Positions 4,530 to 10,195 of a DNA stretch of 11,961 bases are shown here, in pieces. This DNA comes from Promethearchaeia archaeon. Its GTDB lineage: Archaea > Asgardarchaeota > Lokiarchaeia > Sigyniarchaeales > SOKP01. The notes under the pieces are model-generated. The model saw only the letters and a list, made by a program, of their open reading frames with translations, was not told the origin of the DNA and did not search any database. The DNA lies in the NCBI GenBank assembly GCA_029856155.1, contig JAHQWL010000006.1:1-11961 (forward strand), in the 5' to 3' direction. The translations under genes and the position numbers were made by a program. The stretch's first letter is position 1, and each line of letters opens with the position of its first letter.

Positions 4530-5477
4530 ATGAATAAAGAAATAGATGAAAGAACTTACTTGAAATTTCTTTTACAGTACTTAGGTGTTGATGATTTGAA
4601 ACAGATATGTCGAGATTTTGAAATAAAAGGATTTTCAAAATTGAAGAAATCTGAGATTATTGATTTTGTTCTTGATTCATTAGCAGAAGAAGAATTAAAG
4701 GAGCTCTTACAGCAAAAAGAAATTGAAATTATATCTGCTGGAATTGATTTAGCAATTAAGAAAATTAATGGTGAAGATAGAGAGAGTATTGCTGAAATTA
4801 AGATTGTAAATCGGAGCAAGCATGAAATCGAGTTAAAATTTAAAGGATGGAATTGGGAAACGCAATCTTATTTATCAATTAATTCAAAAAATATAGTGAA
4901 TCCTGAACGTGACTGTGATTGTAAAATAGGGGCTAATATGGGTTTTTGTAGTCATTTTTGGATTGGATTCATCTATTCGTTAAAACAAAATTGGTTTAAA
5001 CTTAAAGATTGGACTTTAACAGCTCTACCTGTTGATTTTGAAAAAAAAATTAAGACTATTAAACTTGCTGAAGCTCAAGAAGGGGTAAAAAGTAATGGAA
5101 TCCGAGAAACAGCAGTTTTGATTGATGAATCATCATCAAGTGCGAAGATAATGAAATATCTTGATTCATCGATAACTGTATATGAGGCAATTATTACTGA
5201 TATTGTTGAAAAGGAATCTGAATTTCAAGGAAATATAACAACTTTTTTTATGGCTTCACTTGGAAATCTCAAACTAGGTCCTAAATTAAAAAAAGCAAGC
5301 GATTATCGTGAAACAGATACTGAAAACGTTGAAAAATTAAAAGTACGAATTAGTGACAAATTGCAAAATGAAAACCATTTTATAAATGGAGATAAGATCA
5401 GTTTTAGTGGAAAACTTGTAAAAGATAATTTTTGGGGATTCACAGTTAAGAATGTAAGGAAAATTACTAAGAAATAA
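4530..5477 (+). CDS. Putative nucleic-acid-binding protein: Rho-N/HEH-like domain + SWIM zinc finger + C-terminal OB-fold-like domain
   Basis: VDDLKQICRDFEIKGFSKLKKSEIIDFV resembles a Rho-N/SAP helix-extension-helix. C129-x-C131-x8-C140-x-H142 preceded by beta strands fits SWIM. The C-terminal ITDI...LKVRI...GDKISFSGKL pattern is OB-like. Domain calls are by eye. Confidence 0.7.
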   Translation: MNKEIDERTYLKFLLQYLGVDDLKQICRDFEIKGFSKLKKSEIIDFVLDSLAEEELKELLQQKEIEIISAGIDLAIKKINGEDRESIAEIKIVNRSKHEIELKFKGWNWETQSYLSINSKNIVNPERDCDCKIGANMGFCSHFWIGFIYSLKQNWFKLKDWTLTALPVDFEKKIKTIKLAEAQEGVKSNGIRETAVLIDESSSSAKIMKYLDSSITVYEAIITDIVEKESEFQGNITTFFMASLGNLKLGPKLKKASDYRETDTENVEKLKVRISDKLQNENHFINGDKISFSGKLVKDNFWGFTVKNVRKITKK

Positions 5478-5616: not shown

Positions 5617-6524
5617 ATGGCTAAAATTACTAATAGTAAATCTAATATTATGAAAGGAAAAATCTGTATGATTACAGGTGCTAATTCCGGAATTGGTAAA
5701 GCAACCGCAATAGGTTTAGCAAAATTAGGGGCGACATTGGTTTTAGTTTGTCGGGATCAAGCTCGAGCAGAAAAAGCAATAGCCGAAATAAAGGAAAAAT
5801 CCGATACAGATTCAATCGATCTAATCCTTTCTGACTTATCTTCTCAAAAAGACATTCACAATCTAGTAATGGAGTTTAAAAAAAAGGATGATAGATTGCA
5901 TGTTCTAATTAACAATGCTGGAGTTAATTTAAAAAAACATACGTTAACCGAAGATGGAATTGAAACAACTTTTGCAGTAAATTATTTGGCTCAATTTATG
6001 TTAAGTATTTTATTTTTTGATATCTTAAAAAAAGTGCTCCTGCACGCATTGTAAACGTGGCATCAAGTGTCCAAGCAAAATCAATTGATTTCGATAATTT
6101 AAATGGTGAAAAGCATTATAGTCAATTAAAAGCATATGCGCAATCAAAGCTAGCAGTAGTTCTCTTTACTTACGAATTTGCCAAAAAAATCACAGGAACA
6201 GGGGTTTCAGTAAATTGTCTTCATCCAGGATATGTAAAAACGAATATGATACGTAATTTTCGACCCTTTGTCAAATATTTTTACCATTTAGTGGGCTTAT
6301 TTATGAAAAACCCGAAGCGTGGGGCTAAGACTTCAATATATTTAGCGTCAACTCCCGATATAGATGGATCAAGTGGAAAATATTTTAAAAAGAGAAAAGA
6401 AACGAAGTCTGTTGAGATATCTTATGATGCTACTTTATCGAAACAATTGTGGGATGTAAGTGTTAAACTAACAAATGTTGATCTTAAAAGAAACTTATCC
6501 CAACTAATCGAAAATAAGACTTAA
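5617..6524 (+). pseudogene. Short-chain dehydrogenase/reductase (retinol dehydrogenase/WWOX-like) split by a single -1 frameshift; pseudogene, recoded gene or sequencing error
   Basis: ORF 5617-6054 has TGANSGIG, NNAG and TFAVNY. ORF 6057-6524 has the catalytic YAQSK and LHPG. Adding one A to the A7 run at 6027-6033 gives the canonical DILKKSAPARIVNVASS and a single 302-aa protein. Confidence 0.85.
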
Positions 6525-8170: not shown

Positions 8171-9907
8171 ATGTACCATTTAGACGATGATGAATATTTA
8201 AAGATACCTTATTATCGCAAAACGCGTAGCGTTTGTCCAGAATGTTTAGAACCAATTGGTGCCGAAGTTTATGAAGATAATGATGAAATTTGGATGAAAA
8301 AAACTTGTGAAGAACATGGTGAATTCAAGGATAAGATAAGCAGTTCTGCTAAATATTATAAATGGACCCATTGGGCCATAAAAGATAAAGATGGAAAGAT
8401 TATTTGGAAATTTGATAAAGATGGAGAAGCAAATCCTCCTGATTGCGGTGGTGATGATCCACGAGGTTGTCCTTACAACTGTGGTCTATGCCCAGAGCAT
8501 CTTTCAACTTGCTCCTTAGCATTAATTGACTTAACCAATCGCTGTAATTTTAATTGTAATTTCTGTTATGCAAACGTACAAAAATCTGGTTATTTAGTTG
8601 AACCGTCTTTAGAAGAAATTGACAGAATTATGAAGCATTTCAGAAGTAAGCCTATCCCCGCGATTGCAATAATGTTTACCGGTGGAGAACCAACAGTTAG
8701 AAAAGATTTTCCCGAAATTTGTAAAATGGCAAAAGATAATGGATTCAAAGAGGTTATTGTAGCTACAAATGGTTATGGTTTTCAACAGAAAAATGGTGGT
8801 CTTGAGTGGACTAAAAAAGTAAAAGAGGCAGGATTAGATACACTTTACTTCCAATTCGATGGAATCAACGATATTACATATGAAAAAACGAGAGGTATTA
8901 AGAATCTCATGGTATACAAACAAAGAGTCATCAATAATTGCCGTAAGGCTAAACTTGATTCTATTGTATTAGTTGCTACAATTGCTAAGGGAATTACTGA
9001 TATTGAGGTTGGAAATATCATTCAATATGCTATTGATAATGTAGATGTTGTACGAGGTATTACCTTCCAACCTGTATCTCTATGCGGGCGTATCGCATTT
9101 GAAGAAAGACAGGATTTAAGAATCACCAACGCAGATGTGCTAAAGGTTATAGAGGAACAAACTGGTGGAAAAATAGCGATGGAAAATGCGTGGTATCCTT
9201 TAAGTACTATTGTGGAATTTGGCAGAGTCATAGCCTATTTGGCGGATGTTGAACCGATAGAATTTACTTGTCATCCTGATTGTGGTTTTGCGAGCTATAT
9301 GGTAGTAGATCCAGATTCGGGCGAAATGATGCCGATAATGGAATATTTCGATCCTTTAAAAGTCATAGATTTTGCTAACCGTTTTTGGGAGAAAATTAAA
9401 CATAAAGAAAAGAAAGAACTCAGAGTTTTTGAAGATTTATTAGGTGATTTTGGTAAAACTTTAGATAAAGGTTTAAATTTTCTTGATAAGACTCAATTAA
9501 GAGCAAGATTTTTATTAGGAATACTGCAATATATGAAAAAACCGGGAAAACTCATGGAAATGTTTTCAAGACTTTTAATGCGTGGAGATTGGGAGAGTGT
9601 AAGCTCTTTTAGTTATGGTGCGTTGCTACTTTCCAGTATGCATTTTCAAGATGCTTATAACCTGGATATCGAAAGAACAAAAAGATGCATCGTACATTTT
9701 GGAGTTGCAATGCCAGATAAAAGCGTGAAGGAAATAAGTTTTTGTACAATGAATACACTTCATAGGCCTATAATTGAGAAACAAATAGCAAAACAAATAA
9801 CAGCAAAAGTTAAAAATGAGTTTGACACCACCACAGGTCAATCTGTAGAAGAAATTGAACAAGAAGTAGCCCGTAATGGTGGAATTACTAAGGAGGAGGA
9901 TACCTAG
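8171..9907 (+). CDS. tes: Radical SAM enzyme of the tetraether lipid synthase (Tes / GDGT-MAS, MJ0619) family
   Basis: N-terminal rubredoxin-like site (SVCPEC...KTCEEHG), auxiliary cluster motif CPYNCGLCPEH, radical SAM CxxxCxxC (C125/C129/C132), TGGEPT, ATNG, QFDG, FQPVS, and C-terminal cluster region CHPDCG...MHFQDAYNLD.ER..RC..H...FCT.N. Confidence 0.85.
   Translation: MYHLDDDEYLKIPYYRKTRSVCPECLEPIGAEVYEDNDEIWMKKTCEEHGEFKDKISSSAKYYKWTHWAIKDKDGKIIWKFDKDGEANPPDCGGDDPRGCPYNCGLCPEHLSTCSLALIDLTNRCNFNCNFCYANVQKSGYLVEPSLEEIDRIMKHFRSKPIPAIAIMFTGGEPTVRKDFPEICKMAKDNGFKEVIVATNGYGFQQKNGGLEWTKKVKEAGLDTLYFQFDGINDITYEKTRGIKNLMVYKQRVINNCRKAKLDSIVLVATIAKGITDIEVGNIIQYAIDNVDVVRGITFQPVSLCGRIAFEERQDLRITNADVLKVIEEQTGGKIAMENAWYPLSTIVEFGRVIAYLADVEPIEFTCHPDCGFASYMVVDPDSGEMMPIMEYFDPLKVIDFANRFWEKIKHKEKKELRVFEDLLGDFGKTLDKGLNFLDKTQLRARFLLGILQYMKKPGKLMEMFSRLLMRGDWESVSSFSYGALLLSSMHFQDAYNLDIERTKRCIVHFGVAMPDKSVKEISFCTMNTLHRPIIEKQIAKQITAKVKNEFDTTTGQSVEEIEQEVARNGGITKEEDT
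9891..9899 (+). promoter_or_regulatory. Shine-Dalgarno for the 95-aa ORF, embedded in the tes 3' end
   Basis: AGGAGGAGG ending 8 nt before the ATG at 9908. Confidence 0.6.
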
Positions 9908-10195
9908 ATGCCTGAAGAATTCGTTGAAGATAAAGATGGGATGAAAATCCGTAAACTAGCAGAGCTAAGAACCGTTACGAATAAAGATTATGAAGAAGCT
10001 ATGATTAAGCGAGTAGATGAATTTAAGGAACAAAAGAAAGAAAAGTCACAGTTCAATGATGTCCTTCAAAACACGTTTTTTAAAGCTTTAAGTACTGCTT
10101 TTGATTTAAAAGTGCAAGTTGATAAAGCTATTGGAGAAGATAATTTAAAGAAGCTTCATAAGGCAATTGATGAAATTCTATTATTAGGGCTTTAA
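9908..10195 (+). CDS. Hypothetical helical protein, 95 aa, probably co-transcribed with tes
   Basis: ATG directly follows the tes TAG with a 0-bp gap, strong SD, protein-like composition, T-rich tract after the stop. Confidence 0.85.
   Translation: MPEEFVEDKDGMKIRKLAELRTVTNKDYEEAMIKRVDEFKEQKKEKSQFNDVLQNTFFKALSTAFDLKVQVDKAIGEDNLKKLHKAIDEILLLGL

Follow-up and report, generated by a model that had tools for sequence, protein, structure and literature searches.

A tetraether lipid synthase gene with an altered active-site residue

We analysed a window of DNA, here meaning the whole stretch of 11,961 nt (30% G+C), in which an intact ORF encodes a full-length homologue of the tetraether lipid synthase Tes/GDGT-MAS (Table 1). 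The translated protein matched the NCBIfam equivalog model for Tes (NF045702) at 475.2 bits against a cut-off of 450, covering positions 1–485 of 486, and scored 308.7 bits with the TrsS model NF045646, below the cut-off of 490. Pfam detected an HMPTM-type N-terminal zinc ribbon (PF23545, residues 14–58, E = 3.6e-19) and a radical SAM domain (PF04055). The closest solved relative found with HMMER was GDGT-MAS of Methanocaldococcus jannaschii, MJ0619 (PDB ID: 7tol_A, E = 6e-114), which shares 38–40% identity with the window protein over residues 16–539. An AlphaFold2 (AF2) model of the protein (pLDDT 83.5) matched PDB entry 7tom in a Foldseek search, with a target TM-score of 0.91, an rmsd of 2.3 and E = 5.5e-52. 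Collectively, the predicted product of the intact ORF is a radical-SAM tetraether lipid synthase of the Tes/GDGT-MAS family.

All 15 metal-ligand columns of an hmmalign alignment were kept in the window protein and in the clade to which it belongs (see below). Residue numbers in chain 7tol_A are those of MJ0619 plus 20 owing to a 20-residue tag, so that C29 of the chain is C9 of the paper and Q300 of our query corresponds to Gln268. With this conversion, the SAM-binding residues Gln268 and Ser271 of MJ0619 were retained as Q300 and S303. The C-terminal cluster of MJ0619 is held by three cysteines and a labile methionine; M490 aligned with Met439, and C371, C506 and C525 occupied invariant columns, which together with the alignment makes these cysteines the probable remaining ligands.

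The other ORFs of the window encode a PHP-domain protein (38–1435), a protein of 315 aa whose N-terminal domain is Rho_N-like (4530–5477), an alpha/beta hydrolase, a TetR regulator, a nicotinate phosphoribosyltransferase and an MFS transporter. In this window, tes is not adjoined by any gene for lipid synthesis. A short-chain dehydrogenase (SDR) gene was split into two ORFs in different frames (5617–6054 and 6057–6524, plus strand), with its RIVNVASS motif readable in the second frame ahead of the start codon; this frameshift reflects either a pseudogene or an assembly indel.

Table 1 Features of the Phe-type tes locus, in window coordinates
Feature	Position	Strand	Remarks
Phe-type tes	8171..9907	+	578 aa; stop TAG at 9905–9907
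Rubredoxin-like Cys3His site: C22, C25, C46, H49	8234..8317	+	PF23545; ligand columns kept
N-terminal auxiliary [4Fe-4S] ligands: C100, C104, C107, H110	8468..8500	+	align with MJ0619 C73/C77/C80 and His
Radical SAM motif CX3CX2C: C125, C129, C132	8543..8566	+	PF04055; align with MJ0619 C98, C102, C105
M168 (MJ0619 Gln141)	8672..8674	+	just 5' of the GGE motif; clade-specific departure
T276 (MJ0619 Asn244)	8996..8998	+	GVND motif; clade-specific departure
C371	9281..9283	+	probable C-terminal [4Fe-4S] ligand; invariant column
M490 (ATG; MJ0619 Met439)	9638..9640	+	labile ligand of the C-terminal cluster; HMMER alignment
C506 (TGC)	9686..9688	+	probable C-terminal cluster ligand; invariant column
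F510 (TTT; MJ0619 Tyr459)	9698..9700	+	HMMER alignment
C525 (FC.MN)	9743..9745	+	probable C-terminal cluster ligand; invariant column
Shine-Dalgarno-like AAGGAGGAGG	9890..9899	+	within the tes 3' end; 9–18 nt upstream of the partner ATG
Partner gene (P0271)	9908..10195	+	95 aa; ATG abuts the tes stop codon

Phe stably occupies the Tyr459 position

The HMMER alignment to 7tol_A paired CIVHF of the query with CCIHY of the chain and MHFQD with MHFMD. It thereby agreed with an earlier note on this DNA, which had placed F510 at the position of Tyr459 and M490 at that of Met439, 20 residues apart; translation of the window confirmed the codon assigned there to F510. Tyr459, a conserved feature of the family, is thus Phe510 in the window protein. 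The note had further argued against a one-base error, and the homologues bear this out. Phe was present in 120 of the 120 nearest homologues (76–100% identity), which came from many independent assemblies within a collection of 5.8 billion proteins, and at 49 of 50 orthologous loci from other genomes of the class. The codon was TTT at 36 loci and TTC at 14, and the persistence of Phe through this synonymous turnover indicates that the residue itself has been kept.

We then assigned the Tyr459 column in other Tes proteins by hmmalign to the window protein. Tyr occupied this column in all 78 sequences covering it among 80 named Tes homologues, a sample that was not chosen on Tyr or Phe and included Bathyarchaeia, Hadarchaeota, Thorarchaeota, methanogens, Thermoplasmata and Acidobacteriota, among others. 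Across 60 representatives of 50%-identity clusters in which the Met and Cys ligands aligned, we found Tyr in 52 and Phe in 4, the others having Asn, Met, Gln and a gap (one each). Tyr459 has been reported to be strictly conserved in 1,000 archaeal homologues (PMC9433317); judged by our alignments, this statement is nearly true, and the Phe clade is a genuine exception to it.

Structural and biochemical work on MJ0619 bears directly on this residue. Tyr459 sits 4.2 Å away from the carbon at the substrate's terminus, and the Y459F and Y459L variants, built by Lloyd et al. (2022) to test an olefin mechanism, showed "robust activity" and formed both macrocyclic archaeol and GDGT (PMC9433317). A sulfur-containing lipid arose in assays with 1 equivalent of SAM and not in the Tyr459 mutants (PMC9433317). 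These data contradict the statement in the earlier note that such variants are impaired and build up sulfur-containing lipids. In a 2026 review of radical SAM enzymes that modify lipids, no role is given to Tyr459. Judged by the mutants, Tyr459 is conserved without being essential for catalysis, and since both variants are active in MJ0619, a Tyr-to-Phe change alone predicts neither a thio-lipid nor a new macrocycle.

The Phe-type enzyme belongs to a paralogous clade of one Lokiarchaeial order

The genome that contains the window (G000) carries a second Tes on contig C70 (P0121; locus L002, 991–2724, minus strand), a protein of 577 aa that shares 41% identity with the first and has Tyr at the Tyr459 position. 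Each paralogue was used to scan 161 genomes of the class, and both were found in most of the 134 species of family f1; more than 100 species retain the Phe-type together with the Tyr-type. When 400 genomes of the phylum were scanned, the Phe-type was confined to one order of Lokiarchaeia, in which it was detected in 115 of 134 genomes of family f1, 1 of 1 of f2, 4 of 14 of f3 and 4 of 4 of f4, and it was absent from all other families of that scan. Three single-contig genomes, from genera g18–g20, have one Tes each, of the Tyr-type. To our knowledge, no cultured organism carries the Phe-type clade. The Phe-type is apparently the only Tes of G067, a single-contig genome about 90% complete by markers, and the Tyr-type is the only Tes of G057 and G113, which are 99–100% complete. 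In the single-contig genome G066, the Phe-type tes match spans residues 1–309 only (G066:C1:2224361-2225287) and a partial match to the partner gene described below lies 1.7 Mb away (G066:C1:508691-508900); decay or rearrangement of the module is possible in this genome.

A maximum-likelihood tree of 89 sequences, obtained by a quick rather than careful LG+G4 search, recovered the Phe clade as monophyletic (SH-aLRT = 100). Its sister (support 96) was a group including the Lokiarchaeial Tyr-type enzymes, with which it forms one well-supported clade of the family tree. Identity between genomes was 73–75% for the Phe-type versus 65–68% for the Tyr-type at the family level, and 60–64% versus 49–54% at the order level. 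The Phe-type is thus at least as conserved as its paralogue, which points to purifying selection. The proposal of a divergent subfamily made in the earlier note is borne out by these results, as the protein belongs to a monophyletic paralogue clade with signature residues and a partner gene of its own.

On the same tree, Phe arose at least four times, on the stem of the Phe clade, in the metagenomic sequences P0124 and P0140 and in locus L092, and reverted to Tyr once, in locus L072. Such repeated interchange is the pattern expected if Tyr and Phe are nearly equivalent at this position. L072 and L092 come from a single genome, G012, in which the residues are swapped: the Phe-clade copy (L072) has Tyr, the Tyr-clade copy (L092, on contig C122) has Phe, and both frames are intact. 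Gene conversion was considered as the cause of the swap and ruled out, since each copy keeps the loop sequence of its own clade; the swap therefore consists of point changes. Both Tes copies of G012 also have Cys in place of His49 of the rubredoxin-like site.

The Phe clade departs from other Tes proteins at several core positions

We searched for positions at which the Phe clade has one fixed residue and other Tes proteins conserve a different one. There were few, namely C114, N130, V136, M168, T276, E349 and F510. The column of M168 is Met in 100% of the Phe clade, whereas 100% of Tyr-clade sequences and 77 of the 80 named homologues have Gln there. T276 is Thr in 94% of the Phe clade, and 79 of the 80 named homologues have Asn. 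N130, which corresponds to Pro103 of MJ0619 and lies within CX3CX2C, is Asn in 96% of the Phe clade and Pro in 69 of the 80. Beyond Tyr459, the clade therefore departs at several near-invariant core positions (Q141M, N244T and P103N in MJ0619 numbering), as read from these alignments.

The idea that F510, M168, T276 and N130 form one hydrogen-bond network whose members change together was weakened by the two copies in G012. L072 combines Tyr at the 510 column with the Met, Thr and Asn of the Phe clade, and L092 combines Phe with the Gln, Asn and Pro of the Tyr clade. As a separate observation, C114 (8510–8512) is an extra cysteine conserved in the Phe clade, four residues past the His that ligates the N-terminal cluster; in this column, Thr or Pro is found in other Tes proteins.

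A 95-aa partner gene is coupled to the Phe-type tes

The ORF immediately downstream of tes begins at the nucleotide after its stop codon and is preceded by GGAGG, as read from the sequence. Searches with tblastn and a profile placed this partner ORF directly 3' of the Phe-type tes in all families where the clade occurs. When the class was scanned with the profile, the partner was detected in 115 of 134 genomes of f1, 1 of 1 of f2, 4 of 14 of f3 (the same genera) and 4 of 4 of f4, at adjacent coordinates. These tallies are identical to those of the Phe-type Tes, and the mismatches between individual genomes occur at contig ends. The partner is single-copy in the genome of the window and was absent beside 30 Tyr-type loci and beside the 80 named Tes loci. 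The gene 3' of the partner varies: here it encodes an MFS transporter, many genomes have an ORF of ~360 aa without a Pfam match, and one has a radical SAM protein gene. The partner was also matched strongly (1e-34) in a genome of another family, f5 (G002:C253:605-886), in which no Phe-type Tes was detected at E ≤ 1e-150; lying near a contig start, this match may reflect contamination in binning or truncation of the module.

In G012, the partner is fused in frame to the Phe-clade Tes (L072/L195; G012:C267:600-4164, minus strand), giving an open frame of 693 aa in which the linker is a Glu/Lys repeat and the tail matches the partner profile at E = 1e-15. The conserved adjacency, together with this fusion in one lineage, is good evidence that the two proteins associate physically, and we infer that the enzyme works in complex with the 95-aa protein. 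No family match for the partner was found in Pfam, and the ESM Atlas returned no usable match. Modelled alone with AF2, the partner gave three helices at low confidence (pLDDT 56, pTM 0.22), as one would expect of a protein that takes up its fold on the Tes. The literature that we searched yielded no description of an accessory protein of Tes. We regard the partner gene, more than the Phe, as the notable feature of this clade.

Comparison with characterized and related enzymes

The Phe-type enzyme has the four-domain architecture of MJ0619 (PDB IDs: 7TOL and 7TOM) and all of its metal ligands, including the labile Met. It differs from MJ0619 in having Phe, Met, Thr and Asn in place of Tyr459, Gln141, Asn244 and Pro103, a longer loop separating the CxxH[YF] motif from the last Cys, ~50 extra residues in the helical region of the lipid pocket, and the coupled partner gene. 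The Tyr-type P0121 from the same genome and the single Tes of other Lokiarchaeia share the length, the long loop and the FCxMN ending of the Phe-type, whereas at the four signature positions P0121 retains Tyr, Gln, Asn and Pro, and no partner gene lies near it. The changes around F510 that the earlier note took as signs of divergence are accordingly specific to the Phe clade only in part: the loop insertion and the FCxMN ending (YN to MN) also occur in P0121 and in many other Tes representatives, and the P-to-S change is found in part of the Phe clade only.

TrsS (NF045646) and the related bacterial branch resemble the Phe-type in the N-terminal ribbon, the radical SAM core and the C-terminal cluster region. 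The Tyr column of this more distant 'MAF' branch contains Val, Ile, Gln or Glu. At its Met ligand, the window protein reads MHF rather than MAF, and in the tree it falls within Tes proper.

Discussion

The reading that we favour, and consider probable, is that the Phe-type enzyme is a Tes that carries out the ordinary tail-to-tail coupling of archaeal diethers with the help of a dedicated small subunit. The enzyme is probably active, and its sequence relationships lead us to expect that it makes tail-to-tail C–C bonds in archaeal diethers. Following the published Tes mechanism, the radical SAM cluster would cleave SAM, and the resulting 5'-deoxyadenosyl radical would abstract a hydrogen from the terminal methyl of a phytanyl chain. 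The first substrate radical would then be parked on the C-terminal [4Fe-4S] cluster, of which M490 would be the labile Met ligand, and a second hydrogen abstraction would lead to the C–C bond. The Tyr hydroxyl is not used in this scheme, with which Phe is therefore compatible. The Phe at position 510 is most likely functionally silent, although MJ0619 is a distant relative, so its tolerance of Y459F may not be fully transferable.

In favour of an error in sequencing or assembly, or of a pseudogene in decay, TAT and TTT differ by a single base, and the SDR gene in the same window is indeed frameshifted. Phe nevertheless recurs in nearly all orthologues, in independent assemblies and with both codons, and the gene has an intact frame, all of its ligands and high conservation, leaving this explanation a negligible chance. 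It is also very improbable that catalysis is impaired or redirected by the missing Tyr hydroxyl as such, for instance towards sulfur lipids or a different macrocycle. The proximity of Tyr459 to the substrate carbon and its near-universal conservation, both in the published set and in the 78 sequences examined here, speak for such a role, which mutagenesis has largely refuted: Y459F and Y459L remain robustly active, and the sulfur lipid accompanied limiting SAM (PMC9433317). The at least four independent origins of Phe and its one reversion likewise speak against it. The suggestion in the earlier note that Phe signals altered chemistry or a thio-lipid product hence finds no support, with the mutants active and Tyr and Phe toggling independently of the other signature residues.

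A difference between the paralogues is possible on other grounds. The Phe-type and its partner may form a sub- or neofunctionalized synthase that differs from the Tyr-type in product balance, substrate or regulation; it might make macrocyclic archaeol or GTGT rather than GDGT, or act on another head group or chain, with Phe as one of several co-fixed active-site changes. This alternative, which we hold to be clearly less likely than ordinary coupling, draws on the retention of both paralogues in most f1 species, the extra signature residues, the exclusiveness of the partner gene to the clade, and a precedent, and not on F510. The precedent is MA_1114, a second Tes copy that Methanosarcina acetivorans has beside its main one; in M. 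maripaludis, it produced macrocyclic archaeol in trace amounts only and did not yield GDGT (PMC8941075). Co-retention and the changes Q141M, N244T and P103N suggest that the two paralogues are not simply redundant. However, each type can apparently stand alone, as in G067 on one side and G057 and G113 on the other, the Tes equivalog model favours the Phe-type (475 bits versus 436 for the Tyr-type), and position 510 toggles without a change in the other signature residues. More speculatively, and in our estimate a little less likely again, the Phe-type and the 95-aa protein could constitute a two-subunit lipid synthase with a non-canonical product or substrate range, found in one order of uncultured Lokiarchaeia. 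Such a range might mean that macrocyclic, tri-alkyl and di-alkyl tetraethers are made in other proportions, or that chains or head groups differ.

Tes is the enzyme of archaeal monolayer membranes, and the membranes of Asgard archaea are central to the debate on the origin of the eukaryotic membrane. Our results show that conservation of the Tyr close to the substrate is not universal, and the natural Phe agrees with its published dispensability. Many uncultured Lokiarchaeia possess a second Tes accompanied by a small protein of its own, which in one genome is fused to the enzyme; this pair constitutes a testable object. Should the partner prove necessary or product-changing, the reading of tes as a GDGT marker in environmental genomes would alter. 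Should a two-subunit non-canonical synthase be confirmed, these Asgard archaea would have a repertoire of membrane-spanning lipids that their cultured relatives lack.

Finally, the Lokiarchaeial Tyr-type enzymes miss the NCBIfam Tes cut-off of 450 bits, P0121 just narrowly (436) and others at 426, 371 and 357 bits, whereas the Phe-type passes. Automatic annotation would consequently call the unusual copy 'Tes' and the usual copy 'radical SAM protein'.
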